Program-made: the position numbers and the translations under genes
Part shown: one piece after another, positions 12,731 through 60,991 of the stretch
Layout of the letters: every line of letters begins with the position of its first letter
How positions within the stretch are numbered: the stretch's first letter is position 1
The notes under the pieces: model-generated
The model's input: the letters and a program-made list of their open reading frames with translations, nothing else
The model's database searches: none
What the model was told of the DNA's origin: nothing
From: Phoronis australis
Taxonomy: Eukaryota; Animalia; Phoronida
DNA length: 64,000 bases
Direction: 5' to 3'
Assembly (NCBI GenBank): GCA_002633005.1
Contig: NMRA01000125.1
Span: 100,970-164,969, forward strand

Positions 12731-13377
12731 AAAATGAAACCAATTCCGATAATTTGTTGTGACATGTATGCAACCTTCTTTTTTGAAGAAGAACATTTGA
12801 TTGATGAATCTGTGAATAATGAAATTGGCGAAAAGCTACCGATGTATTGCGTGGTGCTTAAAGCCGACGCATCTTATTGATCCACAAATTTAGCAAAAAT
12901 AACGCTTGCATGGCAATATTTTAGCTCTGGTAACTTGCTTATTTTACTAAAGAATGAGTGTAGTTTTTCATGGCGGTAATTTTGTGTCAGATTTTATTTA
13001 GCCATTTTTTACCGTCGTTGGTGGAAAGCTGTGTATTTCTACAGCTTTGCACCAAAGCTAGTCAGATTGTACCCAGACCAACTCGGTTCTAATTGAAACG
13101 ATTTTTTGCTTACAAACATTTGAGAGTCAATTTCTATTTTGGTCTGCCTCTTGTGATGTGGATTGATAATTGAAAATGTCTTGGAGTACTTTGTAAAACA
13201 ATTTCAATTTATTGCAGGTGTTGGACGTCAGCATGTTGCAGAACTATATCTTGAAGTCATCGTCGGGGATTTTTTGCATGTTTTTGATTAAAAAGTCATC
13301 TACTAACTTGTGTGCTCTATATGGAAGAGTTTTTTTATAGTTGCTGTGTAATGTACTAGAACACTGATGTGGTCAAC

Positions 13378-14788: not shown

Positions 14789-14814
14789 GTTTGTAAAGCA
14801 TGAGTTTTTCTGTT

Positions 14815-18203: not shown

Positions 18204-18493
18204 GCCTTGTAAAGTCTTCCCAGGCCTATAAATTCTATTCTGAGTTAGGAGTATTGTATGGTGGGGGGGTTTCTTAAAAACTTAGTCTTCTGACAGAATG
18301 CAAGGTTTATATAGAATTGTTAATAAATACTTGAAACTTAGACAAGTTTTTTATTATCTATTCCTACTATTATGGAAAGCATTTTTATTGGTTATTTGCT
18401 GCTATGTTCCATTCCAAAAGTGAAGCGACAATCACTTTGTCAATTTTGTTGAATATGTCAGGAGCTCTATAGAATTATCTCTCATTTTTGCAG

Positions 18494-19251
18494 GAAACCA
18501 GTGATCATCTCAAGTCTACGGATATATTTTCTGCGCCTTTGTTTGTTACTGTACCGAACCTGTCATCCTTGGAAACCAAGACATTTTCTGCTGTGAAGCA
18601 AAGTCTAATTGAAGCTTGTAAAGAAGACGGCCATTTCACCAGTGAGTCATTGGAACTGATTCACGACTTGACAAACTCAAAATGCAAACCATCAGGACCT
18701 CAACTCACATTCCTTTATGATTGTTTGAGCAAAAGTGACAGGATGGATATCGTTAACAAAGCGTATGTGACATTAAGCCACGTGGCAAGAATGCACCCAG
18801 GTGAAGCATCGACGCCATGGGATATGGTGGAGAAAATGTTTTCTAATTTATTTTTACATAAATTGACAAGACTGAACTTAATGGGCCTGTCTTTACTGCT
18901 CGATCACGTGACCACCGTCCTACAGGTTGAAGTTGTGATAAACAAAGAGTCGAGAAGAAAGAGCCAGGCGTGGAAGTTACTGTCACCAGAATCAAACTTC
19001 AGACACGTCAGTAGACTTCTTGAGTGGTTGTTTCGACTTCTGCATGAAGATGATGAGACGAGTCTTTGCATTTCTGAAAGCACTGGGTTGCTAAGTTTGA
19101 ATTCATTGGAATCTCAGCGCGAACCTTTGCTCAGATCATGTGAAATTCGTCCACTGTTGCCGCTGCTAGCCAGGTTGTTGGAAGTTGCGGTGGTGGCAAG
19201 TTTGGAGCCTCTGCCTGTAGCATCCAGAATTGCTACGGAAATTGTTGACAG
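18494..19251 (+). CDS. SIMC1: SIMC1-like protein, coding exon 3 (Nse5-like helical domain)
   Basis: tttgcag|GAA...GAC AG|gtagta. The segments DIVNKAYVTLSHVARMHP...WDMV, LLLDHVTTVLQ and RHVSRLLEWL parallel human SIMC1 as recalled (DVLKEAYMLLMKIQQLHP..WDW, LFLRYVVQTLE, HNVRDVIKWL). Confidence 0.8.
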
Positions 19252-19659
19252 GTAGTATGGGGGCACCCACGGTTGCTGTAGTCATTTTTAGAGGCTCTGA
19301 AGTGAATTCCCTCGATAAGAAACATAATTAACGGAATCTGATTTCTTTCATGGAGTTAGAGATTTGGAACAACATTTACACATTCTAGTGGCAGGTACCA
19401 TAATTCTCATGGTTTTGGTTACCATAAATTAAGAATATGATCCTCATCAAATTCTACATATTCTGGCTATAGTTGTTTTGCAGCAGACGTGTTGAAGGAT
19501 TTGTGTATTCTATCTGAAGGTGGCGCTGTTATTTTCAGGTTCTGAGACTCAATAAACATGCAGCAATTACGGAAACAACATAATTCAGTGGATGGCTGTT
19601 CCCAAAGCACTTTTACATATGTAATTTCCATTAATTTTGTTCAAAAATTTTGATTTCAG

Positions 19660-37880: not shown

Positions 37881-40800
37881 TGATTCCTAGATCCTCAGAG
37901 ATGTCTGGTCTCCTCTGATGGGATGCTGTTAACTACAAGTAGTGGTGGGAACTCTGGTCAAGTGGGATCTCATTTGTCTGGTTACATTGTCAACACTCAC
38001 AAATAATTATAATAATTATAATAATTATAGAGTAAAAATGGACTTAACATATTAGATTGCTTGGCACTCAAATCATACCTTATTGCTTTAACTGATAAAA
38101 ATATAATGTATAGACCGTTTTTAATGTCGGCAATAAGAACCTGCCAACAGCTGAAGAGCAGCATTTTTTGAGAAGGAACAACCACCGCCTTGGCACACTG
38201 TGACCCCAATAGTACCAGAATAGAGCCGTCCAATCCTGCACGTGCCAGAGTTACGACACCGTCACTAATAAACACTCCAGAAAGGTACAAAAATATTTAA
38301 TCAGCCATCCAAACCTGAAGTCCCCACTCACAGCCGTCAGTGCAAATAGCTGGCCGGTTAACAACAAAAGCTCTTCAAGAAATCACTACTGGCCAAAGGT
38401 CTCCCACCCACTCTGCACATGTGTCAAATGTCAACAAACTTCATAGTTTTCATCCCTAAAAGAAACTTGTTATCCTAAAAGAGGCTAGCATCTAAACAAG
38501 GCCTTTAAGTTTCAAAACTTCTGCATTGTACTTTGAAACAGTGGCAGTTGCTTCTGATCATGTTCTAATCAGGTCCATTCAAGCTAATGAGAGTTCTACC
38601 AAATTAATAATGTTACTAAAAGCTGATGCATAATCACGACTTTCAAAAGCGTCAAATTTGACGAATGCTCAGTTACTAGGAGTTTGAGACTTAATTCGAT
38701 GCAGTTTTGACAATTTCCTTTCTTTCCATCAACGTACAACAAACTACGTTTCACTATTCAAAAGATCTGCAAAATAGGACCACATTATAAATAAATAGGA
38801 CCATATTATAAATAAATAGGACCATATTATAAATAAATCTAGTCATGCACACCAGTGCTTCCAAATTTTTAACAATATTGAATAAACTTTTCTTTGTTGA
38901 TAAAAAGTAAAATTCATGATCACTCAAATTTACCAACTAATTTATAGTGCACTAAAAGAAAATAAAGGTAAAAATTTTAGATTAAGAAAAATCACATCAC
39001 GCTGAAAAATATCATATAGGACTGAGAGTAAAGCCATGTTCAGACCAACTAAACTCCAACATAACTCTTCAATCTATTGTTGTAAGTGTTATGTAATCCT
39101 TACCCTTCATACCTGCAGTTAAAACTATTGTAATCCTACTATGCTGGTAATCACCAGCTGTTAGTATTATCACTTTCCAATTTCCCCCAGTTAGGACCTG
39201 GTAGTCATGGTTTCCAACAAGACTTGACAGCACAAGCACCTCATTTTTAAACTGCCCTGGTTTTGCACGAGAGGCTATCAAAAATAGGACTTTTATACTT
39301 TTCATGCAAAAAATTTTTATAAAACAAAAATGAAACAATTTAGAAAATTGTAACAGCATTTTCGAGATTTCATCTTCAAAATTTACATCAAAGGAAATTT
39401 GGTCATGTTATTGCTATGGATAAATGTACTTTTCCTTTTTGCTCATTTTTACTAAGAAGACCCAATCAATGGCAGATTAGTAAAGAGTCAAAAACTAAAT
39501 TCTACAGGCTTTCTTCTTTCAGAAAATATATACTTTTACTGAGTCAAATTTTATAGTTTTGTAGCAAAATAAACAGACTTGCCAATAATGTTCTACATAA
39601 TCTTAACCTAGAAAATGTCCACCCAAGATAGCCAAGGGCTTGTAATTTCAGCAAACGGAACATATAAAAATGAATATAAATTATGACTTCTTTGCCCTTA
39701 AAAAAACAGCGTGTTGGTAACTTAGAGGCGGACTGTCACTACTGCTTTTAATAAAAGCAATTTGAATAATAAAGTCAAAATTCTGAGGTCTATTCAAGAC
39801 CATTAATCCAATAAAAATGCAGGAACAGTTACAGTTACAGTTACAAACGTTCACAAGGCATATCTAACATCAGTACACACCGCTAGATTATCTCCTTTAA
39901 AAAGGGAATTGCTTTCATTGACAAGTGAATACCTTGCCCTCTGAACTGGCACACATGGTAACACTACACCTGCAATCTCCGCTACAAATGAGTAACAAAT
40001 AAGTGTTTACTGTTCCCAAACAAAGGTGATAAAAAGAGCACCATCCTAACAAGAGGAATTCTTGTGAATAGGTCTACATGAACAGTGCTACACTAGTGAC
40101 ACAGTGCAGCAGTCACTGAATAAGAATGGAAAATACCCTTGCAGAAAAAAAACACCCTGATTTTGCTAAATGCCAACAAATTTGTTCTTGCTTGCAGACT
40201 GAAGTGGGTTGACTAAATAACATACAGAATTACAAATCTTTTACTGACACACAGTACCTCATGTAGTTATTTAATCAATTACTATTAGTTTCAATTCAGA
40301 TTTGATGTCTAATTATTTCCAAAGGTTTTCGCTCAGTGACACACATGAGAATAACCTAGTACGCCAAAATACATAATTGAAAGTTTTAAAAAAGATTCAA
40401 GTTGATAAACTTTCCTGCTCGCCCCACTGTGCAGAAATGGACCAGTCTGAATGATCATTTCAGCCAATGACAGTTAATGAGGCTTTCATGAAAAAGTAAC
40501 AGGGTGTATGCATATAAGTAGCACCAACTAGGAACAATTCCCCAATATTTTCCAAACACCTTAACTAGGGGAGAGTCCATGCTTAGCAGAAACACAACTT
40601 TCACTTGTTGATGGATAGTTGGCAGATTGCTCAAATGTCAAGGAAACTTTAACATAAGAGGTTGCTTGGCATCAAACTTGGAAATACAGGAAAATATCAC
40701 CACATCAACCAGCAACCGAAGGTTTGAGGTAAGCCTGCTGTCAAGTTTATCTTCAAAAATTTCAAAAGCAAGAATTACTCCCCAAACACTCTAAGACTTA

Positions 40801-43800
40801 AATATGAAAATCCGTGTAGTGGTCATATACTTTGTAGAAGTCATGCTGATAAGTTGCTAGGTTTTCACATATCATAACGGATGCATACAAAAGGCCGGGT
40901 GTTGTATCTTAAAAAGTCTTAACAAACGTTTCCGAGGCTGTTCTAACTCAAAAAGTCTGGTTTAAAATAATCCTCTGCCTGACAGGTGCATATCGCCCAG
41001 ATTTAAATTTCAACAAAGGTCTTTCTGAATGCTTAATTCTTTAAAGGATTAAGAACTATAAATGCTTGAAATTCAAAATGTAAAATTTCAATCAGAGCAG
41101 ACAAAGGCGTAAAGTGCGCTCTCTGGTTGAATGGTTGAATGCCCAATGGCCAACAAACTATCAAAACATTTTGAAATAAATCTCTTCAAATACAGCTCCA
41201 CTTTAAACCTTCAACTAAAATCAACATGTTTAAATTGTAAACTGAGACAAAAATGAATGGAAGCAGAATGCAACATGTTTGACCAGAGGCGGATGGGGGG
41301 CAAGATGGACTGCAGATGAATTAAATAAAACAGACCTGGACAGAGTAGTTGAAGAGCAGTAAGAGGTTTATTTCATGTTATTGTGTATCTCCACTCAACT
41401 AACTTGGTATTGAGTTCTGTGGCTGGAATGGACAGAGTGTGAGGATTACGGTAGAGCAGTGAGATATGAAGTTGAAAGTTAAGCCTCGCCTTAATTTCAT
41501 TAGGAAAAGCCAGTGCTTCCGAATGTTAGATGTCGTTATTGAACGACATGCTTACTGCGAGCTCTTTTCAAAGTTGGCAAATGCCAAGACAATTTTTGCC
41601 TTACTACAAGAAGATTTTGGTAACCATACACAACAAGCTTAAGAATGATTCATCTTCATTTCTAACTCATCCACAGGCATTTGCACAGAAAGAATGCCAT
41701 GCCGTATTTTATTTTAAAGCACCGACACACGATTCATACTACAATGACATGGAGACTATTTTACTGACTCCAGCCGACTGTTTAGAAAATGAAGTTTCTA
41801 AAATCTGAATAAAAGTATACAGACTGAAACAATGACTTTCTCGTCTGCCGTCTTGGTTTGTTGGCGATTCACCTTGAAAGCAAATCAAAGCACTTTCAGA
41901 AAGCGAGTTGTCCAACAATGACATTTAACCAAAGTCTGTACTCAGTCCAGTTTCAGCCAAAATTACTTCAGTCACAAAGGATGCATTAATAAGATGCTGG
42001 TGTTGTAAAGAACCCACTTCTATATTTGTTAGACCTTAAGTAAGGAAAATGTTCTTTTTTAACTATTTTAATAAGTTGATTAGCCTTGCACTAAGATATT
42101 TCTTGAAGGAATGACATGGTGGTGGAGGCAATGTGATGATATTGACGATGACGAGGATCAGGTGACCAGAAGAAGTGTAAGCTCCCATCCCCTAAACCAT
42201 ATACACTAAAAATTCTCCAAACTCATTGACCAAAACTCCTAACCTGAGAACCAAATTCCAGTCCTGAACCATGGGTACATGACTGGCTTGGGACCAAACA
42301 CCACTCGCAAACTGTGACCAAAAATATGGAGTTTGATTAAGAAGTATAAAGTATTTTTGGTGTGTGTGTGAGTGTGTGGTGTTTAGTGGAGCATGTATGG
42401 AATTTGAGCGGTATGTTTGGTGTTAGCTTTTCCAGGACAGGGGTTTAGATCGCAGCTGGAATTTCCACCCCCTCTCCGAAACATTTCTGTTAGCAACCTC
42501 TTCAATACAAGAAAAAACAGATATAGGCAAAATACAATGGCAAATTACTAAGTATCTGCGATGAAATTCTCGGTACTATCATCTCAGACTCAATGCCAGC
42601 CCAGTCATACAGAATTAGCTACTGTAAATACACATGGGAGAAGGTGCAGTACCAATCAACATTCCAATAGAAAACACCTTTAGCATATCTTGGAAGGCCA
42701 GGAAATGAGAATTCTAGGAGTGCAGCTGATTAACTTACAAATTACATGGCTTGTGAGGGTTGAAAGAGCAGGTTTGTCCATACAGACATCTCACAATTGG
42801 AACAGGTACAGGTGATTTTAACATGGGGGTATAGTCTGCTCTTTTAGTCAACAAGGGAGCACCCAATCCGTCAGTACCAATATCTTTTCATTGGAGTCCC
42901 ATGTAGTGCCACTTTTGCACACCATTGTTTTGGTTCATGTTCAGGACTGGAACCATTCGTTTTGATTTTTACCTTTGCGTGACTAGCTTTAATGTATTTG
43001 TCAAATGGCAATTTGGGTGCTAGTAGTCAAGATGCTGGAAATCGAAATTGTAAACAATCATAACCATACTGTCTCATAAGGTCATAACTGGCATAAATCG
43101 TGAAATCAAATAGATGCTGGAATGCTCGTCGTCGTTTTAGTTTTACTATGGCGTAAATCTTATTGAACATATTTGCATATTTATTGACTACATTTGGCTC
43201 TGATACGGAATGTTTTCCTACAGATTAAACAGTGACAACGATGTAAATTTATAATCATACCTATACGGCAATAGGAAACTGTCAGACAAGGTGGGAGAAC
43301 AGTGGATTTAACAGGTAGGTTTATGAGGAAAGATTCAACATTATAATGACTGGCGGGTGACCTGAGCATTGCAAAGTTACACGTATTGGATAGTTACAGA
43401 GTTAGTCTGTAAACAAGGCAGTGTTAACAATTAATGCCAATTCTTCGATAAGGGCCACTTTTTTCAAAACCAACCCATGCCAAATGACGTCGTATGGATT
43501 TCGCAACCTATTGTTTAGCTTTCAAGATGCATGCGACGGGCATAAGCGTGTCGCATGGTTATCGCCTGTGGGACACTTCCACTGTTTTCCTTTGTTGTAT
43601 CTTTGTTGGATATGACAATACCGGTCGTGCGGATATCATACCTTGGGCGCACATCAGCCGGTTACAGATAAATGTTTACCATTACCTTTATTATGAGGAA
43701 GAAAAACAAAGTAAAGAATAGATACGCCTATGTATCGAAGTCAGGTGCCACTGATCCCTCCTTAACTCTGTGCTGGAACAAGAAATTCAGGTTGGAAATC

Positions 43801-46800
43801 AAACTCAAATGGGATAGGATCCTAAAAATGCAAACAATTCCTAATATCATGCGACTAATAGCTTGTTTTAAGCAAACTTTAGACACAGAATTTGACAGAA
43901 TTTTGTATCTGTGCACCTAACAGCAAATCTCCAAACTTAGCTTTTTCAAGCTGGTATCCTAGGTTTTGAATTGATTTCAAAACCTCAAAATTTTTGGCGG
44001 TCGAAATTGCTGACCTGAAATTTTTTCAGTGTCAAAGGTTGAAAATTAAAAAAAATGTTCTGCATAGATAACAGAATGTTATTACATGTAAAAGAAATAG
44101 GTACATGGCTCGTACGTGATGAAGTAAAAGGTCCTGTTTACAATACAAGTGATTTTCTGCCTAAGTTCCCAGTTACCTAAACTCACAGTTGCTTACAAAC
44201 CTCCTCATAAGGTAGTAAATTCTCTTCCAGGCCAGTGTTGGCATGTTTGTTTAGATACCAACCTCTTCTAAAGGTGAGTGCAGGTAAGTTTGTTTTGTAT
44301 ACCAACTTCTTTACAACTTTCTTATTTCACCAGTCCTAATGCGTGCGAGTAGAGATCATAGGAATTCTGATTCTTTGCTTTTCGCCGTCAAATACAGCAT
44401 TATTGTCCTCAGCCAGTGGGCCAAAGAATTTGTCAATGCCGAGGGCAATGGACAGGTAAAAAACTTGAGCAGCGCCAGTCTTTGATCACAAGACTTTGTT
44501 TACATCAAACGACCAGTGAATGTGCCGAGTGTTCAAATGTACCTCCCAGTTGACAAGCGGGGCACAAGGTAATCACCAATGGGAAACTTTGACAGAGGTA
44601 ACAAGCAGGCCCTGCCACTCAACTGTAAACAAAACTCAAACAGCCTTTTGTCTGGGATGCACTCAAGGTTTTTAAAATTTCAAACACATTAACTTGTCAT
44701 ATCAAATTCCTGAATAACAGTTATATGATGCAAACCTACTAATTTACAACCTAGGTTGTAAATGAAAAAAAACATGCGTCAACAACTCAAAAACTGTGAC
44801 TAAGCATGGCGGTTGTTGAATGTTTTCGGACAAGTGAGTGATACAACAATGATCAAAATTATAGAGTAGATACAAAAGATCTTTCAAGATAAATCTCAGC
44901 CAGTAAGTCATGACATGCTGTTGAAAGTGTCAGAAGGCAGTCTGTTCTACGGCCAATGAAATGGGTCTGACAGGGAAATGTGGCTATACAGAGAACATCT
45001 GATCTACCTTTAAAATGTGAGTACTGGACCATCGAACATTTACCAATACTTGTTGAGTTGGGTGAGAGTCTATTTGCCTAATGGTTGTGTTCAGAGAGCC
45101 TGTTGATAAACTAGGTCAGACATACCATGTGGTCAGATGAGGAAGTGACACTGATGTACATTTTAAAATTTTGCTGCTCAACTAAAACGCCTAGACAAAC
45201 TACACCATGCAGATTCGAAAATTGACATCATTGAAGAATGAGTGTTAATGTAGGCACGATAGACCCCTGTTCGCTAATCTGTATTCAGTATTGTGAGTGA
45301 AGTTTTACTTGTCTATGCCCTGCCTGTCCAAAAAGCTATAGGATAATATCAAGCCATAGAAAGATAAGTAGTTATGAATGAATGAGTCTGACAGGAATCT
45401 AGAGCTAATAACAAGCTCCATCATGTCGATACCAAGCCTGGTGGACAAAAACTCAAAAGCATCACACTTTACAAGGAGAAGGGTCAAGATTCTCGTACAA
45501 AGGCAATATGCCATACTTTAATTGGGTCGGTGTACCCTGCTTACTGGCCTGTCATTCAACTAATTACAAAACCTCGCTGTTTTAATTGAACGGCAAAATT
45601 CGTGCCAAAAAATAATGCAAACGTGTACTTCACACTTGTGTCTTTTTCATTCTTTATATTATTGAGTGTTATAAAACATAAAATAGATAGTTGTTGTGAA
45701 CAGAAACCAATTACCCTGTCCAGGTAAAGCGTAGCCAAGCTTAACAATTGTCGGTCTCTGATGACGACACTCTGATGCTACATGGATGGTGGTGCACAGC
45801 TAATCTTGCGCTGAAATTTACCAGCAATGCATGCCACGTCAAATGTTAATGCAGTTTTGCTATCTAAGACCATCATGTTTTTTCAATTGCATTTTATGAG
45901 CTTAATTCGTATGGAAAACACATTGTGGATTTGATAACTGTCATAGGGGTTGCTATAACAATCAGTGAAAATCACTTAATGCACTACAGCTTCGTTCTGG
46001 TTGTGTCCTTATGACTTTAAAAAGCAAGGGTTTTTGTAACATTATTAAGTACGTAACTTGTTGGCTTAACAAGTGCTGCAGTTCAACATTTAATTTATTT
46101 GACTGTAAAAAATACCATACAGCAACATAAAATACCATGACAGGATACCTGCTGTGTAGGTTCCTAACAAGTACTAGAACAATCAGTAGTTAGTACGCTC
46201 ATCACCAACCTTTACACTAGTTACGGTTAACATTTCCATCTCATTCATTACAAACTGTTGGCCATTCCAAATAAAATTTTATTTCTCAAGGGTCTGAAAC
46301 TGGCTCACCTGGGGTCTGCTTCACGTAAAATGACTGAAAACTGAGCATTCAATTCATAAATTTGGTCTTCTACTTCCAATTCATAATTTATGAATAAAGG
46401 TTTAGTCAAGTGATTATGTGCGCATCACAGTCCGAAATAATTCACACAAGTTATCTCTGCAACTTGCTCTTACATAAATATTCTCAGAGACTTTGTACTT
46501 TTGCTCAAGTGAGATTTAATTATTTTTCTGAAATAGTTGTGTGGAGCACAAATCCAAATTTCTGACCAAGGTCTGTAGTCCCTTTTCGTGAAATAGACCC
46601 AGTGCCAGAAACGCTGCAACCTATGTCTAGTATTCAAGCAAATGTCAAGCAGGAGACAGTACTTTTTGATTGATTCACATGACCGAGCACTGATGAACGG
46701 AGCTTTGTTCAGTGGACCTCATTGAAAAGAAAACTGTACAAGAAGGATTTGACCACCCAGTAGGTATATGTGTATTGCCTATCAAATCTTTTAGTCCTTT

Positions 46801-49800
46801 ATCAAAGTTTTCTTAAATAAGGGCAATTCAAAATCTTGTAGGGCTGAAAACGAGTACTTGGTTCTGGTCTCTATTCCAACTCATTTTGAAATCTGCGCTC
46901 ACAGACTAAAGAACTTCAGACAAGGTTTCGTGTAAGCAAGGTCTGAAATGCACAGACTCGTTGAGCGATCAACAAATCATGCATCACTATTGCTCATCCC
47001 AGGTAGACTTTCTTTTTTGAAAGTGAGCCACTAAAAACACTGCATCACCACCTCGATTTTCAAAAAAAAACAGAACTGGAACCAACAATGCTTTTTTTGC
47101 CTAATTGTTAGTTTACCTTGATTTACTTTTTATGAGAATGTTGATGGATTATCCCCACTTCAGGAGCCTTTAATAAAACATAAGTTACACTACGAAATTC
47201 AGACATAAAAAGGTGTCCAAATCCAGACCTTCTACTACAAATTCCACTACTAAAATATAAGGGACTGCATACTTGGAACTGTCCAAATCAATGCTTCAAA
47301 ATGCACAGTGCCACTTCTATGCCCTCATTAGCCAATGAAAAAAAAGAGTGAAAACAAGCTTCACATGGTTACTGTCCAGGTGATTTAGTTGGAAACCATC
47401 TATTCTTTTCCTGGTTGACATTTTTAAACGAGACGAGACGAGAGACAAAACACAACATTAGCCCTCCCTAGGGAATCATTAGTTACGCTCATGATTTATG
47501 GATAAGAATTTAAAAAACTAATAAACTGAGAACTAACCTTGCAGCCTAGAAACAAATGTCAACAATGCGTATCTTCCACCAGAAACAACCAAAAATGCTT
47601 GGATCATTTTCCGTAAAACAAGAGAACATACCGTATTTGTGTATCGACAAAAAAGAAGTTGCCACAATTTAGACTGCTTCATTTTATGACACAACTGAGC
47701 CAATATTCAGTCTTAATCAATGTCTAAATTTACTAAATTTTTATTGCAGTTTGGTTAAGACGCCATCGACACAATATCCATCAATTTCAAATGCGTGTTA
47801 GGAGCAAAGTCAAACAAAATTTGCTGTTTCCATATTGGTTCTGTAGCTGTTAACAAGCAGTTAACCTTCACTAACAATACTAACTCTTTTGTAATGTACA
47901 CGGGCACAGAACATTCTATCCATTGTCAACAGTCGGCTTCCCAAAGGTGAAAAGAAAAACGCAGACGGCTTCTTATTTGCGCAGATGTGTGAAAAATACT
48001 TTTAAAATGTAATTTCAAAGTCATGTGTGAACACGATTATTTACCACTTTGTGTATTGATATGGAATTAAACTTCACAAATACTGCCAATCCCAAGAGTT
48101 AAAGTGTCAAATTTCTTGAAAACAAACCAAATTCCGTTATTTACTTTTAATTAAGGAAACCTTAAACCGTCTACAGAAAGCACACCTAAAGCGTGGCGAA
48201 TCCTTCATGAGCTGCTATTAAAACTTACAAACCTAGTATTCTCAATAACTTTTTGACTAGAGTCTATTTGGACTACCAAGGCCTGTCCTTTTATTCCTGC
48301 ATTAAAAGATCATTACATAAATTAGATGTTTACTTAAAAGCAACTCTTTATAGACACTTACCTTTTAAAGATCATTTAATGGAACAATTGTATTTAAACG
48401 GGAACACAGCAACTGTGAACTGTAGAGTTTCTATTTACTGAAAGCACATATTTACTAATCAGCGATCTGCAATTTTTAAGCCTGATAAAAGAACAATAAA
48501 AGAACACCATAAAGGAAAACGGTAAGGTGCAGATGTGTCGGAAATGACTTATTTACCTAGAAGTATCTTGTTGGAATAACATTTGAAATAAATATGTCGA
48601 CAACATTGTAAACAAAGTCACTTTGTCGATCTTTCGTGCAAGTAACCAATCTTGTTCCATTCAAAGTTCTCATCTCCAAAGAAAACGCCATAGGATAAAT
48701 GATATGAACTTTAGTGACTTGTTTTTGTTGTTACAAGCACGTGCAAGATCAAGTGATGCATTTTTTTATACATACTTTAGTGTTTGGGATTTTAGCGACC
48801 GCCAGGTGAATCATCTGGCATCATGCCAAATGGGAAGTAACATAGGCACACAGCTGAACTGTTGAGACTTTACTAAGGAGCAGGTGGTTTCTGAAATTTA
48901 AATTCGCTTTACGGCTATATTTTATTCTTACAACAGTTGTGACATCACAATGTTGGCTCTCATCCAACACGGCAGATTGTTCTGGTCTGATTCTTGAACA
49001 AAGAAATCCCAAATGAATGAGACATTTTCATTTTGTCTGAATTTTTTCTTAACCCAACAAAATTTAAAGCCACCAGACACAAAGAGATGTCTTCTTGTGT
49101 CATTAAAGTCTAAGGGTAAATAGTTTTGTCAATGACCCATGACTACAAACCAGGTTGGCATTTGGGTTCACATTCTAACAGCTAGCCACAAAAGGGTGAA
49201 CTGGGCCACCCGTGCAACCGAATCAAACTTGTTGGCCAAAGCCTTATATCTGAAATACATGCATGCTGAATGCGGTCATACTCCCAGTTCTGTTTGTATT
49301 CTGATAAGAAAGAGCGATAGGCTCAAGTGGGCTTTAATCTTCATATCGGCAGAGAAGAACACTAGGACTGCGGATATGTGTTGATGCTGCGTAAACCAAC
49401 ATGTGTTATAGATAGAGGAGACCCCTTCCATTGGCTTGATATCATCAGCCTGCCGCCAGACAAACAAGGGCATTTATTACTCACCTCAACACTATTTCCT
49501 ATTTGCCATCTTCAAAACTGTGTATTGCCAGTTTTATCACTACTGACTAAAGCCAACAAAATTATTTGAGTCAGTGAAAGATGATCTTAAGCCACAAAGC
49601 ATAGTTGGGTCTGGTCTGTGTGTGTTTTGGAGAACTGATGTGATAATTCGTTATTGCTTTAACTGTCCATTTAAAAAAGTGAAAAGACATCTAATACCAG
49701 CAAAAAAGGAATGTGCTTTTCATCTCATCTCAAACCTGTTTCACTGGTGTAGTCACGCAGCTGGGGGAGGGGGGGAATGGCAGCGCTGGTGCGTGTGAGG

Positions 49801-52800
49801 CAGTGATTGTAACATTTTTCAGTCATCGACGGTTGTAGCTGACTTGACACCTATGATGGCCAAATCCTTATTTGCATGTGATTTGTGGCTTTTGAAAAAG
49901 GTCGCCATCGGCTAAAATTGATGCGGTGGCCATTTTTTCTTTAAGTAGTGAGGCGTAGACCAATACCAATTATGTTTTTGTTGGCCTTATGTAACATTTC
50001 CAAATCATGTTTTGCCTTTGGTCAAATGCAAGCACACACTTCTCCTTTATATTCGACAAATGTCCAGAGGAGGAAAGGCGACAAATGTCCAGAGGAGGAA
50101 AGGCGTGTGAAAACCACCACAACTTACATAAGACACAATATATCCCTTATATATACCTTTTAGCCTACTTGCTGACAAGAGTGATTATTATGTTTGGTGG
50201 TAGTGTTTTCCACTGTTCAACTCCTCTTAAGGAAAATCTGTTGTTTGTGGTAAGAGGAAACAATAAAATGCACCTTGAAAGAAACTTTCATGGCAAGTAT
50301 CTTTGACTACAAAAGTTCAGATATGCTGAACTGCACCATAAACAAGCGAGAGTCCACCCTGAAAATTAATGGTCATAAAATATTCTATGCACAGCAGATG
50401 CAGAGAGTTCATAGTGAAGAATTATTACAATGAGTCCGCTTCTAAACAACAGTTAATAGCAGCCAAGCACAGATCAATCATTATTTTACGACTTAGGATT
50501 AAAAATGATGGTGGTATCGCACGCCTTGTGTCGGCTGTGGTTCAGATGAGCCATAATGCTGTGAGTGACAGTTATAGTAAGAGGATTAATATTGTACTTT
50601 GATACCTTAAACAGAAACGCAACAACAGATTAATAAAAAATTTAGCACTCATTAATTAAACCGCGTTTCGCGCCTATGGGTTTTCAACAGGGACGGAGGG
50701 CAAAAATGGGAACCTTAAAAAAGTACCCGTGTCGATGCAAGCAAAAGTCGAACACAAGATTGTGATCTTTGCAGTTGCAACACCCTCCCTGGTTTTTCTT
50801 ACATCGGCAGGGCATTTGAATGCTGTCTGATAATGCAAACTACAGCAGTTATCAATATCTAAACTGCGATAAACTCAGCCCTGCTTATCATTTGGTTACT
50901 GATTATCACTTGGCTAGCACACGCATGCTGCCGCTGATGATAAGTACAGCAATATATCAAGAGACATCTGCAAAATAAACCAGTAGGGACAGGCTGTCTT
51001 ATCACTAGCAATGGTACGATACTCGTAGAGGGAGTACCCGTCAGTGGTAAGCAACGCATAATTAAAGGCCGTTAATAATCGTCCGGCAGGTGTTTCTTTT
51101 GTCTTAAGGCAGTGAGCGTAACTCTGGCTACCATGTCATAAGAAAGTGTGGCTGCGGTAGTTTTATTATATTAATGGTGTGACTGTTCTCAGTGACAGAG
51201 CTTCAAGTCAACCAACAGGTTTGTAACCTATGGCTTTAAGGTTATATGGAACCCTTGAAAAATGTAAAAATTTGGTTAACTTTGGAACATCATATCTCCA
51301 AACTGGCTGACTGGACTCAAATGAAACTTTCAGATATTATATGCCTTATGCACTAGCTAATGTTGTCGTGAGTTGTTGCTTAAATGTTCCACCTTTACGT
51401 GAGGGACATAAAATTATCACAAATTTTTCACAGCTGCAAGTGACTATTGCCAGTTAAACCTTGCCAGGAAAGGTAAATTGCTCATTCAAGAGATTTCTAT
51501 AATTTTAAACACCAAAAAAATCACTTTTCCAAATAATGTAAACTGTGCTGTCATTTGCTTCAATACCAACATCAGATGCCAGTTTCACAGAAAATGTTTC
51601 ACACCATTAAAAATCAAAGAATGATAAGTTGAAATATACAAATGGAATTTTATTTCAAAAACCCCAGTGCCAGGTACAAATGCAAGGCATGGCAAGTTTT
51701 GAAAGTACAGCAAGTGTAAGATGGATGAGGTGCTTACGACACAAATAAAACTGAACATGCAAGGTGTCTTCTAAATTACGCTACTTAAGACCTCCAAAGT
51801 TCCCCATTTTTGTGACCTAACTTTTCACAAACTCGGGCAACTTGACCTGTGAACATCCCGCACACTCTCACACGTACAAAAGCTTTTCTTTACGGCCCAG
51901 AATAGGCTTAATAATGCGCCTAATGGATTTCAAAAGCATGATTTTAAAGTCATTCTTTTTGGCAAAGTTTTGTCGGCTGACAGTGCCATTGTTGGGTCTA
52001 GCGTTAATGTTTTTCTTGTTTGAAAGCAAGTACGACTGGAGCGTGCATGTAGTCAACATAGTGTCTCGTCATTGGTCACTAAGAGCCAATAGGCAACATC
52101 TCTCACCTTGTGGTGATCGTGGTAGCTTGCTAGACGGGTGCACAAGCAGTCTGTTCAATAGTTAGACATTGGTGATTAGGATATAATAAGCAATAACTTC
52201 TGCAAGGCTCAAGTGTAGTGTATAAGACACCAGTGTATGGACTGTCTATTTATTGTGGTTATTAGTTGGTCATAGTCAACAGGCAACAGACTCTTACCTA
52301 GTGTTGAAAGCGTGCAGGGCACAATAGTAGACACAAGGAGCGTTTTGCGCATCTATTTACACATTGGTCATAGGTCACTTGGACGCAATAAGCAATGTCC
52401 ATCAGTGTGCGTTACACAGTCTTCATGGTCACCAGTGACCAGTGACCAATAAGGGACAGTTCCTATCAGGCAGTGACTACATGCAGTGTACAGGACAGTA
52501 GAGTGGACAGGACTAGTGTTTGTGTGGTGAATTACCTGGCTTGTCACAGATGACTAGCAAGTAGTAGATAGTATCCCCTAACTAACCATGTGTGCAAGAG
52601 AGCCAGCCATACGGCACATTCTTCACAGTACTTAAGCAAAATAGGAGAGACAAGTTGGTAAGTTGTAGGAACTGTGCTTAAAATTATTAATGATTATGGA
52701 ATTTTGTTGTTGCTCTACGACAAAATTTTGACTTCAGTAACTGTCACTTTCAAGTTTTTGTTCAGAAGCTCCATACAATTTTCTGTCCAACAAATACTCA

Positions 52801-53441
52801 ACTTATATCTAGCTCCTGAAACTTATACAGTGTCATGAGCATGACCACACTCTATTTTACTTATTATATTTCAGTGTGTGACAACTTAAAATAACTTTAG
52901 ATTAGCAAGACTCAGAAAACATAATAGACAATATACACAACTGGTGTTTCGTAATAGTGGCTGGCTGGCGTGGCTGGCGGGAAGGCAACCTGTGCAAGAT
53001 GGTCCCACTTAAAAGGATCTTGTGTATTAGGCCAGATTTATCAGTCATGTTTCAGTGCCCAAGGGCAGAGTTGGTAGAGTTTATTACTTACCATTCATCA
53101 TATCTGATCAGTGAAGCATGATGCCAATGGATGATCCATCACTGTGACAATTATCTGTTATGCAATCAAGGCAAACATGACTGTGAGCCAACAGTTTTTG
53201 AATGAACAGGCATCATTGAGACCCATGGAGATGAGATCTATAGTAAATCTTCAATTTCATGACAGGCTGGAGAGCACACCATTGGCTTTCAAAAGGAAAC
53301 AAATGTCCTACAGATCACCCTGTGACAGGTTAAAGCAAAGGGTGGACTCAATGATTGACAGGGGTGGGAGGGAGAAAGCCTTGGATTGATAGGGTGGCAA
53401 ACATTAGTGCATTTACTGTAGAATTACGTAATGTTATGACT

Positions 53442-53602
53442 TCCAATTGGCTATAAAAGCCTCTCCCTTCAGAGCAGAGTGTACAGATTGGCTGTAAGTT
53501 TCACTCAGTTAAGACTGTCTTGAATATATTCTAACGGATTACTGCAAATTTTGACTGTCACCGGCAAGATTTTTTCTGTGAAATTATCGTCTGGCTTAAA
53601 AG
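53442..53602 (+). promoter_or_regulatory. Putative promoter (CCAAT plus TATA) and 5'-UTR exon of the dae4-like gene
   Basis: CCAATTGG CTATAAAAG at 53443-53459 and a donor AAG|GTAAAG at 53602, upstream of the acceptor ctatttcag|54455. Confidence 0.45.
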
Positions 53603-54463
53603 GTAAAGTCAATCTACATATATAAATTTTGGATTTTATTCTGATACTTTATAAATCAATATTTCAAAATAAAACTAGATACAACTTTGGTGGTCATAAA
53701 ACCAGTCAGTGCATATTCTTTTTGTGTATTTAATTTTCTGTTTGCTTTGTGTTTTCTAAATTCTTTTTAGAACTTTAAATTGAAATAAAACTAGAATCGT
53801 TAAAATGTTTTTGATTTCCCAAACACTAGCTTGACTTTTCTGAAATTGGTAGAATGGTCTGAAAAGGAATTATTTTTTTCTTCTTTTCAGCTGCAGTGCA
53901 TGCTCATTTTTGTTGCAAAAATACAAATTTCAACATCAAAATTCAAATAAAATGTTTTAAGTCATGCACAAATCGGAAATGGAAACGAAAATAAATTATA
54001 TTTATTCCTATCTATCAGTTAAGAAATGTAAGTTTCTCTCATTTGGGTTGATTTTATTACTTAAGAACTGGCAGGAGTTTGTACACGAAAAACAATTTGT
54101 GGGCTATTGTTAAAAATTGTTTACTGTTGTGCACTGACTGTACATAAAGGTTCATATGCCAGCAACATATACCTAAGGCTTTTCACCAAACAGGCAGTGT
54201 CCACTGAACTGTGACAAAGTCATGGCTGCCCCCATTGTGTCTGTGTTGGTCCTCACCTTGATAGTACTTGGAACAATGAGCCCAGAACCACTCAAGTAAA
54301 ACATCCAATCAACACAAACCTTATGAGTGAACAATAGTCCAGCAACTCTATTGGCTACCCCTGTGACCATAGCTGGACATGAGGGTGAATGTAAACCAAC
54401 TGACCTCAACTTCTTGTAGGGCAGGTGGTCTAAACTTATTTTCCTCTATTTCAGAGTGGAGCC

Positions 54464-54556
54464 ATGACTTCAGGGCATTGGCCAGGCAACATATGCCTTC
54501 CCAAGCTAATTGTGACTGTCATCGCGGTGCTCTGCATGTGTGTTACCGATGCAAAG
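54464..54556 (+). CDS. dae4-like (Tae4-family) protein, coding exon 1: signal peptide
   Basis: Acceptor at 54454, Kozak-like GCCATG, MTSGHWPGNICLPKLIVTVIAVLCMCVTDAK, then a strong phase-0 donor AAG|GTGAGT. Hydrophobic core with a T-D-A cleavage-like site. Confidence 0.8.
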
Positions 54557-55577
54557 GTGAGTTAAAATACTTGCACTTTTATTTCATACTTCCTGACCCA
54601 CAACGTTCCAGCTGAACGTATTTCTAAAACATCTCAACAAATATGTTTACTTATTCAATTAAAAAAATTGGATATTTTTTAATAAGAAAATGTCACAATG
54701 AATTTTTAAATACCTAACCATGCTGAAATTGGTGATAAACAAATCAATAAATAATTTTGATCAGCCAATTTCAGAGACTTTTCAGTAAAATTTTGATGTC
54801 TGAAACAAGTGTTCAGAGTAAAAGTTTTGGAATTTTTACAGAAAATACTGATCATTAAGACCGAACAAGTAATCTAGCACAGTGTCAATTACCAAACCTG
54901 TTCAACTGTCGTCAGAAGCTAACACCAGGATAAAGGTGTTGCTAATAATTAAAAATTGCGTGTTAAGTGTTCCTACCACAATTGATCAGTTAGCTGTCTA
55001 ATCACCTATTCAACAAAGTTGTTTTGACACAAGGCAGATGTAACCTATCTCAGTTTGGCTTAGATTGGTCTCATCAAGCCAGTCATTAGTGACAGCTCAG
55101 GTGTTATATATACATACAGGTAACGACCTTGGCTTGATCAGTCAATTATTTAAATGAAATGCCGGATACCCGAGACAATAGACTAGTGATAGTACAGCAA
55201 GTGGTACTCATTATAAGTACAGGTGGGATAATTGGGCAACACTTTGCATTAATTAATCAACACCTCTACTGACTAGGTGAGGAGATAGTCTTGAGCAATC
55301 ATTTTCCAACCCTGACCACAAATTATGTCAGTAGAATGCAACATTCTCATGGTAAGAAGGCGAACCTGTTGTCTGACGAGCGGTCGCATGATTTTTTGAG
55401 ATTGCAGCCCACTCTCATCTGCTTTTTGATTGAACAGTCTGTAAACACTGTAACACTGTATCAATCATATGACACAATAAATAGCAATGACCTTAACCAT
55501 ATTAGCTTTTATGACAGAAGGTAGACGAATAGCTTAACCTTAATTACATGTTAATAAAATCATGTTTGCAATTTCAG

Positions 55578-56171
55578 ATTCCTCTGCCAAATTTCGACAA
55601 ACTGAAGTCTGTGTACCCTGGCTATAAGCACCATGGTGGACACTACTCCGACAAAGATGTCGTCACTATGATTGGTGGACGAAAAATCCTAAAACTCACA
55701 GAGACCACTGGTCTGCGCCTGTCATTTGCCCTAAACAAAATCGGACATGGGCATGAGATTAACAGCTACCCAACAGAGCTGACGAACTTGACTACATATT
55801 GGTCAACCATGGGCGCTGACCGGAAAATATACTTAACACATGCATTAGCATTTGGCCCGTACCTCGCTGTTAAATATGGCAACCCAGAGCTGGTTCGACC
55901 TGGAATATGGAACCGGGAAAGGGTCATGGACCAATTTTTAGGTCGGCAGGGACTGATCCGCATTGTGACATATGATAGACGGAAGAAAGCGCAAGCATTT
56001 GTAGCATTGTGGGATTGCAATAATTTCTACAAGACTCGCAACTTTAACAAGGTGCTCCATCTATTGTCAATAGAATTCTGGGAAATGAAAGGACTCGGCT
56101 GTAAGTTCGAGAGAAACAGGAAACACAAGGGCCAAGGTCGGCCTAAACACTATCCCAAGTGGCTGCGGTAG
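55578..56171 (+). CDS. dae4-like protein, coding exon 2: Tae4 (type VI secretion amidase effector, NlpC/P60 fold) homologue, apparently catalytically inactive
   Basis: atttcag|ATT (phase 0). Collinear motifs versus Salmonella Tae4 as recalled: LPNF/RPSF, MIGG/IIGG, TTGLRLSFALN/ACPIRMSYVLN, GADRKIYL/GADNKFYI, YLAVKYGNPE/YLTHTMGKPD, FLGRQGLI/FIGKKGII, AQAFVALWD/ARGHVTLWN, IEFWEM/GTLWIL. Confidence 0.85.
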   Translation: MPLPNFDKLKSVYPGYKHHGGHYSDKDVVTMIGGRKILKLTETTGLRLSFALNKIGHGHEINSYPTELTNLTTYWSTMGADRKIYLTHALAFGPYLAVKYGNPELVRPGIWNRERVMDQFLGRQGLIRIVTYDRRKKAQAFVALWDCNNFYKTRNFNKVLHLLSIEFWEMKGLGCKFERNRKHKGQGRPKHYPKWLR

Positions 56172-56768
56172 AACCACGTGAAAACATCTGCAATATCCCA
56201 CAAAGTCGACGCTTAAAATCTGTCTACAATTTGTATATATTTTGCAATATCATTGACATCAAACCTTCTTATGGTTAAGAAATGTTACTCAAGTAACACT
56301 TTAGTCCTTCTGGACACAATAAGTACGGGTGTCGAATCTTAGATGTCAGTTGAAATTAAATCCAAAAAACCTGGACAATTTTAAGTTTTCTGTATTACGT
56401 AGTTGCTGCTGTAAGCTATGCAAAGTGCTTCAGGCATAGTTCGGTAATGTTGTTTTTTTAATTATCGTGCTAACACCATGTCTCAACAAACTGGCGATAT
56501 CTATTCCGAACTCGATTCCGTGGTTCGAAATCACCCAACCTGATGTATCTACTAAGATTACCATATACCATGCTTTGACTTGCATGAGGTGCCATCTGGG
56601 TGTTTGAGGTGAGAGAGTGACACACAATAGCTGTGAAGGACAGGGTCTAACAGCTTATTTGTAATCTGCCAAACACAAATCAAAATGCCAGTAGGAAATC
56701 ACACTTAACAGTTTGGAGATGACATACATGTGCTGGTTTCCATGGACTCCCTCACTGCCAAGTAATCA

Positions 56769-57240
56769 GGGTTATGTTAGACTCTAGAAAAATATCCATA
56801 TTTGGCTAACTTGGGAACATCTTATTTCAGAAATGACTGATGGCATTCAAATGAAACTTTCAGATACTCTGCTTTATGCAACATTCTCTTCAAAATTCTT
56901 TAAAGAATTGATTTTTAAGTGCTCCATGTTGGCATAAGGGGCTATTAAGAATTGTGAATTTCATAATTTTTATGACAGAACTTGATGCATAAAACAAATA
57001 CGAAAGGATAATTTAGGGAACTAGCTGTGTTTTTGACATTTCATCTTCAACCTCATGCTACTGACACCACTTTGCCATGGATGTGTCTTTCTTTTTGTCG
57101 CTAAAATTCAATAAAGATGACCCAATTAAGGGCACGATGGTACAAAATCAAAACTCAAATTCTACAGGCTTCCTTCTTTCAGCTTAGTTTCACACATTCT
57201 GAGATAAGACAGACTTATGGATAAGGTCCCGCATAACTTT
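56769..57240. mobile_element. Kolobok-like non-autonomous DNA transposon
   Basis: Ends GGTTATG ... CATAACT. The left part recurs at ~51240 (after TTAA) and inverted at ~30730-30850 (before TTAA). The right part recurs at ~39360-39606 (ending TTAA). Confidence 0.55.
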
Positions 57241-58719
57241 ATGTTCCCAACAAAATGCAGAGTAAATCCATATGGCTGACATGTTGAACAAAGTTGACAT
57301 TTTTCTCACACCACTTTTATGGTAGAAGTTTATGATGCTGGGTCATAAACGTGAGAAAATCTTGAGGAAAACTATAACAAGATTCAGAAACAGAAAACCA
57401 AGCTGTTACTTGACAACAGAGTGCCTGTGAGAGTATGATTTGTGTGTAAAAATGTTTTGGACAATCTTATTTAATTTTTATTATGTACTGTTATATTTCA
57501 TATTTATACATGTGTAGTGATTGATTTCTAATTAAAAATATTTATTTCAAACAGTCCAGTTTGTTTTCTAGTGCATTTCAATTCCACAAAGTCTTCAGAA
57601 ATGAGGGCGGGAAGATGTTGAAACTCATATTCAGATCAATCCTCTAACTTACACGCACCTCATAACTGAATTTTTACCTTATAACATTTAAACATTACAG
57701 ACTCCAATCTGTGTTACAAGTTACACAATATGATCTACAGCTTGTTACCAAACTGAAACAAATAAGGCCATCCTTCAGCACTTTTACTTACAAAAAAATC
57801 ATTGCTGAAATTTGCCATCAAAATTTTCAAATGCTTTTTTACATTTTATTTCAATAGCGTACATAAATGCAAATGGAGATATTACTGCCCAGAAATTGAA
57901 TTAACCTTATATCGGGGCAACAAATTCTTATACCTTGCTATCAATGATCCAAGTCAGGTGTTGTTTTAGACAACTACACAGTGCAACGCAAATACAATAA
58001 AAATGTTTGTTTTGCTGCCAAAGTTGACAAAAATAAAATTCCACTCCTTTGCCACAGTGCCTAAGATAAAAAATACAGCAATACAGCATAGATTCACAGG
58101 TCACAGACCTGTGGAAGGTTACAGCTCTTAGAAGATAAGAATGGAGTAATTCAAGCACAGCTGTCTTAGTTTAAATTAAAATTCTGAGCAGAAAACAAAC
58201 AAAGTGAGAATATCTTAATCACACTGCATCAAAAGATTACACGACCATCTGTCTATCATTTTCTTTCAGGAGGCAATATGTCTTGCCTAAACATTTCTGA
58301 ATGATTGAAGGCAACCATGCACTGTTGTCTTTAGCATAGCTGCCATGTAAGCAAAACAAAACTCGGAAGGAAGCTTATCGTGTGATGTGTTAGCCACGCA
58401 TGGCAATATCTTTAAGTCATTTTGCTTGCGGGATTCTCGCCTGTACGGAATGCGCACAAGATCTTTGTCTAAGAATTAAACAGAATAAAGAAAACTAACA
58501 TCCAAATCCGCGCGAGGTACTTTCAACATGATTACTTTAAACAGGTCCCTTTAGGTATGAAAAATGCTAAACAAATATTTGCTACTGACAAGACTGCGAA
58601 CTTGAAAGGGTCATGGATTAACCTCAAAGGATCAACCTACTTTCAAGACAACCACAGCAAACACTCTCTGCCCAGCTGATGACCAAGAACAAAAATCATC
58701 TGCCTGTAAGAAGATTATG

Positions 58720-58950
58720 GTAAAAAATCTTCAGTTTGGCACAGAATATGGCAGAGAGGTGAAATTTCATTTTGTCAAATTTCTCAACAAAAATGACTTT
58801 CCAGGAAAATTTTTTTAGCATATGGTATGTATGGCGTACCGTAGCTATGACCAAACAACCTTTGGTAAAATTTTGAGCATTTGCAACTATGTGGTAAGCC
58901 TATGGCAATTTCAGCAATCATTTTTGTCCCAGATTCGAGAATTTTTACTG
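58720..58950. mobile_element. MITE, CAGTAAAAATTCTT family copy
   Basis: GTAAAAAATCTTCAGTTTGGCACA ... TGTCCCAGATTCGAGAATTTTTACTG. Confidence 0.7.
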
Positions 58951-60991
58951 TCTCTACTGTGGAAGGAGTCGAGTCGCAAATCATACCACCTGGGGTAACT
59001 AAGAGACACTATGGTTACATTTTATAGAGAAATGGAAATTGAGGTTAAACAAAAGGACAGAACAACGCGCACGTCAGATAGCTACGGTAAAATTCTCATT
59101 CATCTGAGTAGAGTTTTTTGAGTAGGGAGATTAAACCTTGAGCCTGATGTCATGCCAAGAAAGGTATAGTTTTAAAACATGAACACCAAATTAATAAATA
59201 GATTTGCTGAAACAAAACAACAAACAATTTCATATTACAATAATTCACTGCCTGTTTAGCACACAATATGGCAAACAAATGAAATTTTATTTTGTCAAAT
59301 TTCTGCACAAAAATAAAGATTAAGAAAAGTTTAGTCTCATTGCTGTTTAACTGCAGCCTAGTTTGTACTTTAAAGACATCATAAAACAGCATTTGGTGAA
59401 GTAATTGCGAATGAAGGGTAATACAGCAACTAGGTATTATTGCATGACACCAACTTGTAAGACAGACTACATAACTTTCCTCTGAAGTGAAAATAGAAAC
59501 CAATCCTCACATCGAGCATCAATCAAGGTGTCAAAAACACATTGAAGGGAAACAAAGACCTCATTGACATAAAACACATTGTTTTTAAAAAACAGGTTAA
59601 CATTGTTTTGAAATTCCCTAGTTGCTCCCCAGTCTATCATTAGGCAACCACAAATCCCTTTGGCAATAGTAAATCTCTTTCAAGTGTGATATTCCCTCCT
59701 AAGAACCAGACAAAAAGAGACTGAGATGGAGATGTCACAGGCACAAGGCCTTTGGTTATGTACACAGCGGCAAATGGGAGAGGATTTTTAACAAAATATC
59801 TGTGAACAATGTTTTCTTAAAGCAACTTGGATTGATTGAAATTGCAATTCTCGGCTTGTTTGGATGAAAGGGAAGCATTGTTGATGTCGTATTCCATGGT
59901 TTGCATGACATGACTGTACACACAGTTACCTTGTGTGCAGTTATGATGCCTAAGCAAACAGAGGGTCGGTGGTTTTTATGAAGCGTGCCAATGTTTACCT
60001 GTGAACTTTACTGAACAATTAATGCCCCATTAGGTGCTATTTTGCCAATACGCTCAAAGAAAAGCCAAAATGTCCCGCCATACAAGAAATATACTGGTGC
60101 AGAAATGATAGAACTGGCTAAACATATCAAACAAATTCAGATTGGGCAGTCATGCCAAAGCAGTTCTCAAACGGTGTTCGCAAGAATTTTGACACAATGG
60201 GGAAAAACAGAATGGAAACAAAAAATATTGAAAAATGGTTACTAGAATCTAGACGTTGTCACATTTAACACGTGTTTGTGGTCAAAGTTGATCCTTTCCG
60301 CGCGTCCTTAGCCAGTTTTATCAACATTTTAGGATGGCTGTGACATTTACTCAACAAGTACTCGAAGTGTAAAATGGCTATGGATTTTCTTATTTTGCTA
60401 GACTCTGAAAATAAAAAGCGTGTAGCATTTTGTTTATTTTCCATCTCCTCAACTCAACCTTCCAAACAATCAATAGCAAAAATATACTGTGAGATTAATA
60501 TCAAAGTTTTAACCATGTATAATAGATTGAATGGAGAAAACTGTATAACAGTCAAAATGGTTTCTGTTGCTTTTGAGACGATTGACATGTGCACCAATGT
60601 TTTGGTAAAAAAATAACATCCAATTTGAGACTAGATGCATTAATTTGTGTTTAAGTAAACGGCTCAAGAGATGGCAACAAAGCACCAAACAAATCAAAAG
60701 AGAATCCTGAAATTTGTGGCACAAGTTGAGCACTGATAACAGTGTCAGCAAGTCACATACAGCCATCTCCAAAACAGTGAAGAGAAATGGCTTGGACTTG
60801 ATGGCTGTTTACGTACTTTGAGAGGAGTAGCCCCAACAGATCACTGGATTTCAACTCTAGTATTTCATAGGATGATTCTAAATTCACCCCCCCCCCCAAA
60901 TTCTTACAAGTGTCTTGTCCTGTACTACAAAGACGCCCTGCTGTAATTCAACACTGATCTCCCTTCAGCACATCACTAAAGTCCATTCACA

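Follow-up and report, generated by a model that had tools for sequence, protein, structure and literature searches.

The 64,000-nucleotide stretch of Phoronis australis DNA analysed here (the window) carries a spliced, transcribed gene whose product has the fold of the amidase Tae4 and has lost both residues of the catalytic Cys-His pair, with Thr in place of the nucleophile and Phe in place of the His. The protein is constrained in sequence and belongs to a clade of animal homologues in which the nucleophile Cys is missing throughout. Domesticated amidase effectors count as toxins retained for their continuing ability to kill bacteria, and a fold kept without its nucleophile across four phyla would represent a second fate of the same transfer.

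A spliced and transcribed gene

The open reading frame that holds both codons, for Thr and for Phe, forms the final exon of a spliced animal gene with a precursor of 228 amino acids as its product. The frame itself extends from 55533 to 56171 and lies in eukaryotic DNA of approximately 37% GC. Reads of three raw, stranded RNA runs and a contig set, all of the same organism, were found on the exonic parts only, on the plus strand, and six GT..AG joints at the gene were present in the RNA data, so that the gene has introns and is transcribed. Transcript levels in the three raw-read runs, by our own arithmetic, were about 12, 13 and 34 reads per kb per million.

All parts of the gene lie on the plus strand. 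A common exon (54455..54556) contains the start codon at 54464 and 31 codons, and is followed by a phase-0 GT..AG intron of 1021 bases (54557..55577), the joint of which was present in 4/4 runs (8, 19 and 38 reads and one contig). The coding part of the last exon (55578..56171) encodes the Tae4-fold domain of about 170 amino acids and a basic tail of 29 amino acids, and the 3'-UTR (56172..57481) has an approximate end, placed by read depth, the contig end at 57481 and a read pile at 57462. An ATG at 55548 was considered as the start codon and rejected as intronic, the true start at 54464 being in the preceding exon. Residues 15-25, encoded by the common exon, form a hydrophobic core with the highest mean hydropathy in the protein (3.15 over 11 residues, a measure of hydropathy only). 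With this signal-peptide-like N-terminal exon the precursor is likely to be secreted, as the initial annotation had proposed.

Upstream, five alternative 5'-UTR exons, with ends at 40728, 45016, 51218, 52657 and 53602, share the acceptor at 54455. The first (40570..40728) was joined to 54455 in 4/4 runs and ends in a GT donor; its given start is the end of an RNA contig, and past its last stop it has no in-frame ATG. For the other four the coordinates are those of the 3' end portions only, each closing on a donor: 44987..45016 (joint 45016-54455 in X2, X3 and X4), 51186..51218 (joint in X2 and X3), 52627..52657 (joint in X4 only, 4 reads) and 53540..53602 (joint in X2 only, 3 reads). No in-frame ATG was found in the five exons within the 150 bases checked. 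One short coding sequence is in this way fed by five alternative exons spread across 14 kb (40570-54455), and exon choice varied by run, the 51218 exon being used in X2 and X3 and not listed in X4. A TATA-like stretch was seen by eye near 53452, upstream of the mapped part of the fifth of these exons. A simple NF-kB-site pattern was absent from 39001-56000, where we estimate that fewer than one chance match is expected, and its absence is hence uninformative.

The gene is the single Tae4-like sequence detected in the 64-kb window. The next tblastn match had an E-value of 1.5, and a family profile made without the window row and run against 1637 stop-to-stop pieces of the window returned the gene at E 1e-62 and the next piece at E 0.18. 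Elsewhere on the plus strand, two long exon-like open reading frames (13360-14796 and 18473-19255) belong to another gene and gave no significant Pfam match; the first holds V/I-rich acidic motifs that resemble SUMO-interaction motifs and that we take to recall SIMC1. A run of N at about 12200-12630 marks an assembly gap, and partly matching reads from both strands pile up in a repeat-like manner at 39500-39540, 46490-46560, 56845-56880 and 58750-59320, one of these piles lying inside the 3'-UTR.

Tae4 fold and the catalytic positions

A full HMMER scan for relatives returned 44 matches at E <=0.001, 32 of them at <=1e-10. The family alignment, A1, has 43 rows, namely the window protein, P0001 and 41 of the 44 HMMER matches, with P0038 (repetitive), P0040 (82 amino acids) and P0045 (Rhs-type, later an outgroup) left out. 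Since the window protein alone gave no match to Pfam and an E-value of only 0.04 against Tae4 chains (Salmonella Tae4), the assignment to the Tae4 family rests on profile and fold. The A1 profile matched four Tae4 chains at E 5e-13 to 9e-11 (4J30, 4HFF and 4JUR at about 5e-13), and hhalign of A1 against five Cys-His-intact Tae4 proteins gave a probability of 98.8 and an E-value of 5.7e-17 in the same register. The Pfam Tae4 family, PF14113, was matched at E <=0.1 by 39/43 A1 rows, the window row not among them, and an Atlas feature search returned Tae4 clusters at 0.96. The AlphaFold model of the window protein (pLDDT 87.5) was matched to Tae4 by Foldseek at E 8e-8 with TM 0.63/0.77, and all 11 of the 11 Foldseek matches at E <=0.001 were Tae4/Ssp1 chains. 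In a fold comparison (VIA) Tae4 scored Z 17.5 and 17.2 and the next fold 7.0, the superposition at Z 17.5 having an rmsd of 2.2 over 148 residues. Family profile, hhalign, Foldseek and fold comparison are thus in agreement with the family originally proposed.

Thr75 (55707..55709, codon ACT) lies in the context E-T-T-G-L-R-L-S and Phe172 (55998..56000, codon TTT) in the context A-F-V-A-L-W. In the A1 profile alignment the Tae4 segment N-A-C-P-I-R-M-S falls over the consensus d-t-s-a-L-R-l-S, and G-H-V-T-L-W over g-h-v-a-L-W. Counting from this alignment leads to Cys44 and His126, as these residues are named in the available text of PMC6277958, the count allowing for a 13-residue tag deduced from chain length. 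In the AlphaFold model the Thr begins helix 44-55 and the Phe lies within strand 138-147. The initial annotation had read the two residues as replacements of the Tae4 nucleophile Cys and catalytic His, and at each position codon, profile, hhalign and place in the model bear this out.

The available text of PMC6277958 describes a Cys-His-Asp triad in Tae4, with the Asp two or eleven residues past the His. The window protein has, by count, Ala at His+2 and Lys at His+11, with an acid at neither, and in hhalign the loop of Tae4 that carries the disulfide and the Asp is about five residues shorter in the window family. Neither alignment nor count leaves a catalytic triad and, judged by its sequence, the protein is inactive as an amidase.

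Relatives of the window protein and the probable order of residue loss

Relatives could be named, directly or via clusters, from Dreissena, Potamilus, Sinanodonta, Pinctada, Gigantopelta, Sepia, Owenia, Lingula, Tubulanus and Lineus, which we take to be molluscs, one annelid, one brachiopod and nemerteans, and their annotations read solely uncharacterized or hypothetical. Among the matches seen there was mostly one copy per named species, with two in Dreissena. The two Dreissena proteins, P0001 and P0010, correspond to LOC127871095 and LOC127871096; the consecutive numbers suggest a tandem duplication, and both are of the Ser-His type.

Trees were built from the longer rows only, 42 in a quick search and 39 under maximum likelihood, the 39-row tree being also without P0034, P0035 and P0085. 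P0045, P0083, P0084, P0085 and P0087 were the outgroup rows, which we infer to be bacterial. With the three trait columns removed, the maximum-likelihood tree united the window protein with 28 of 29 relatives at 97/97, and the quick mixture-model tree gave an SH-aLRT of 99 for the corresponding 31 rows; inside the clade the window protein is weakly placed (84/72).

Cys and His occur together in 0/43 A1 rows, and Ser and His together in 10/43. Among the 29 relatives the Cys column reads Ser in 17, Ala in 8 (Owenia among them) and Thr, Lys, Asp and Gly in one each, with Cys in none, and ranks 77th of 168 in conservation; the His column reads His in 23, Arg in 5 and Tyr in one. Because none of the 29 has the Cys and 23 keep the His, the Cys loss appears old and clade-wide and the double loss sporadic. 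The loss of His is scattered over the tree, with Arg in a brachiopod-nemertean group that has weak support and includes His members, Tyr in one annelid-side row and Phe in the window protein. Conserved loss of the dyad in relatives, the pattern sought at the outset, is thus found for the Cys and not for the His, and the double loss does not define a branch. Since the mollusc, annelid, ribbon worm and brachiopod relatives are likewise without the Cys, their sequences point to a likely old enzyme-dead Tae4 lineage in lophotrochozoans.

Outside this clade, P0036, P0039 and P0043 form a further lineage of Tae4-like proteins, in which the Cys position is taken by Asp and the His is absent; its own support is 96/91, and one tree places it, weakly, as the sister group of the main clade. 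P0041 and P0042, also outside, keep the Cys and have no His. As a side observation, P0042/P0060 is a fusion of a domain resembling Tae4, in which the Cys is retained and Ser stands for the His (Pfam Tae4 E 4.7e-6), with a hedgehog-type Hint autoprocessing module (E 3e-44), and has a hydrophobic N-terminus; it is possibly a self-cleaving, lipid-tethered Tae4 derivative, and our literature search found no paper on a Hint/hedgehog-Tae4 combination. The homology searches recovered no Cys-His-intact animal Dae4, and the trees contain none. A horizontal origin of the family is inferred from published work and from the nearest neighbours, which are bacterial. Chou et al. 2015, the paper that introduced the dae genes, reportedly includes mollusc and annelid dae4 genes.

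Putative function and known systems

According to the available text of PMC3852654, three segments border the cleft of Tae4, namely the first helix-helix link, the link that follows the catalytic helix and the loop ahead of the last strand. The first of these carries in the clade the motif Y-P-G-Y-x-x-x-G-G, which is present in the window protein, and when mapped by secondary structure has a mean conservation of 0.69 against a median of 0.57, whereas the other two stand at 0.56 and 0.57, with single conserved residues. As two cleft segments are at median conservation and the disulfide loop is shortened, the pocket appears remodelled; a pocket that is kept but remodelled thus has partial support, and the cleft may be narrower with Phe in place of the His. 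The mature window protein has a pI of 10.06, with a net charge of +11 on the domain and +8 on the 29-residue tail. Tails of clade members are basic and often His-rich, the last 30 residues having a net charge of +4 or more in 9/10 named relatives, a count made with no control set.

On the strength of the partly kept pocket, the basic protein and tail, the precedent of RipD and the induction of a Cys-less Nematostella homologue (see below), we favour a secreted Tae4-fold protein that would bind bacterial peptidoglycan without cutting it, a reading to which we give slightly less than even confidence. In such a scheme an animal ancestor would have acquired a bacterial tae4 gene, and loss of the Cys before the phyla split would have ended amidase activity. 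The cleft between the two subdomains would have been kept and could hold the D-Glu/mDAP stem peptide without turnover, the basic surface and the basic, often His-rich tail may add attraction to anionic cell envelopes, and outside the cell the protein would coat bacteria, trap them or flag them. Loss of the His would have come later, separately in several lines, a scatter that is expected if catalysis was already gone. More tentatively still, it is possible that a bacterial type VI secretion toxin lost its activity in an early lophotrochozoan or before, and that molluscs, annelids, nemerteans and brachiopods have since used it as a secreted protein that recognises peptidoglycan. It would then be a second, independent animal family, beside the PGRPs, to have passed from amidase to sensor, among proteins called 'uncharacterized'. 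If peptidoglycan is bound, this would be a class of bacterial sensor or trap new to animals, among them farmed bivalves and cephalopods.

Against a peptidoglycan binder stand the remodelled pocket and the possible narrowing of the cleft, and conservation over four phyla and the five upstream exons would equally fit a housekeeping or developmental role. The enzyme-dead protein could have been co-opted outside immunity as a secreted protein of matrix, mucus, shell or development, its cleft binding a host peptide or its basic tail anchoring it to host polyanions. Maintenance across the four phyla mostly as a single copy per named species, upstream exons over 14 kb that suggest several contexts of use, transcripts in all three raw-read runs at the levels given above and clade-specific conserved residues that differ from those of bacterial Tae4 are all compatible with this. 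However, no result points to a host ligand, and the sole Cys-less animal homologue in print is immune-induced, so that we regard such a role as somewhat unlikely; if peptidoglycan is not bound, a bacterial toxin would long ago have been taken over for an unrelated task in the animal.

The charge of the protein could also be its function, with the domain as a scaffold and the basic surface or a released tail damaging or clumping bacteria without recognition of stem peptides. The pI, the net charges of domain and tail and the basic tails of 9/10 named relatives agree with a cationic antibacterial of this kind, which is nonetheless improbable, as the tails of relatives do not align, several of their domains are neutral or acidic and motifs at the level of the fold are strongly conserved. 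It is quite improbable, too, that the clade still hydrolyses its substrate with Ser or Thr in place of Cys, together with the kept His and a conserved Gln or Glu, the window copy being derived and weaker or dead. The Ser-His rows and the 23/29 relatives with His mentioned above would suit such an enzyme, as would Gln or Glu at His+11 in 27/29, but Ala at the nucleophile position in 8/29, Arg for His in 5/29 and, in the window protein, Thr, Phe and Lys at the nucleophile, His and His+11 positions speak against it. Moreover, His+11 corresponds to the Asp of Tae4 only by gap-free counting, MAFFT and hhalign placing the loop otherwise.

Constraint on the window protein was assessed from differences between the window and the RNA data. 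All 8 of the 8 listed coding variants were synonymous against an expected share of 0.226 (22.6%), which gives p ~7e-6 if they are independent and is a within-species measure, not a between-species dN/dS. In run X1, where 14 of the 16 differences in 55576-56500 were listed and placed and the other two were not placed, no indel was listed in the coding exon, whereas the first 340 bases of the 3'-UTR held 8 substitutions and 5 indels. Of the 44 columns with conservation of 80% or more among the 29 relatives, the window protein matches 38. On these within-species variants, the window protein is, by its sequence, under purifying selection. A decaying pseudogene or transcribed relic, as might be read from the long end branch (0.82 against a median of 0.37, with the longest-but-one end branch of the clade not far above it), the missing Pfam match of the protein alone and the change of all catalytic positions, is very improbable and largely refuted by the intact frame, canonical splicing, synonymous variants, indel-free coding exon and conserved columns. 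With its RNA reads, the gene is thus, as the initial annotation had supposed, maintained and expressed rather than a young pseudogene.

Among known systems, the window protein is closest to Tae4 itself (PF14113; 4HFL, 4JUR, 4J30, 4BI3, 6IJF), with which it shares a papain-like fold over the 148 aligned residues and, in common with its family, the motifs R-x-S-x-x-L-N, G-x-P, G-I, L-W and a final W. It differs from Tae4 in having neither the Cys, the His nor the acid of the third residue, in its shortened disulfide loop, and in having introns, a signal-peptide-like exon and a basic tail without the context of an immunity gene.

Two tae4 homologues are described from Nematostella, both induced by cGAMP via NF-kB and only one with the catalytic Cys (available text of PMC8713801; bioRxiv 2021.05.13.443009). 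Through its Cys63 the latter, nvDae4, cleaves peptidoglycan and kills Bacillus, and the Cys-less homologue is not studied in the available part of Margolis et al. 2021 (PMC8713801). As far as that text goes, both are, like the window protein, animal and Tae4-derived, and secreted, as the window protein too is predicted to be. The window protein is without the residue through which nvDae4 is active, and shares with the Cys-less paralogue the absence of the predicted catalytic Cys, a likeness that does not imply orthology of the paralogue to the clade. Since Margolis et al. 2021 report the Nematostella protein, a Cys-less animal Dae4 is already on record, and the initial claim of an undescribed branch was overstated (available text of PMC8713801). 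For a lophotrochozoan Cys-less Tae4 clade we found no paper, in a search that misses most subscription papers and Chou et al. 2015, whose alignments or supplements may include some of the genes. Tick Dae2 (Hayes et al., bioRxiv 2020.04.10.036376, in its available text) is likewise a domesticated T6SS amidase with remodelled cleft loops, and is secreted, as the window protein is predicted to be, but belongs to family 2, is catalytically active and has widened specificity.

The mycobacterial RipD (Rv1566c) has, according to the available text of PMC12067865, an NlpC/P60 fold that has lost its catalytic residues, binds peptidoglycan and carries a C-terminal extension. It is a bacterial protein of another subfamily, and as far as it is described there the likeness to the window protein is one of analogy, not descent. 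The P60 domain of MAP1204 (3I86) and MagC (7BK8) were weak fold matches at about 8-9% identity.

Non-catalytic PGRP receptors arose from amidases that became binders through loss of catalytic residues. Their zinc-amidase fold is unrelated, and the window protein is without their signalling or membrane domains; the logic that would lead from amidase to binder is the same.
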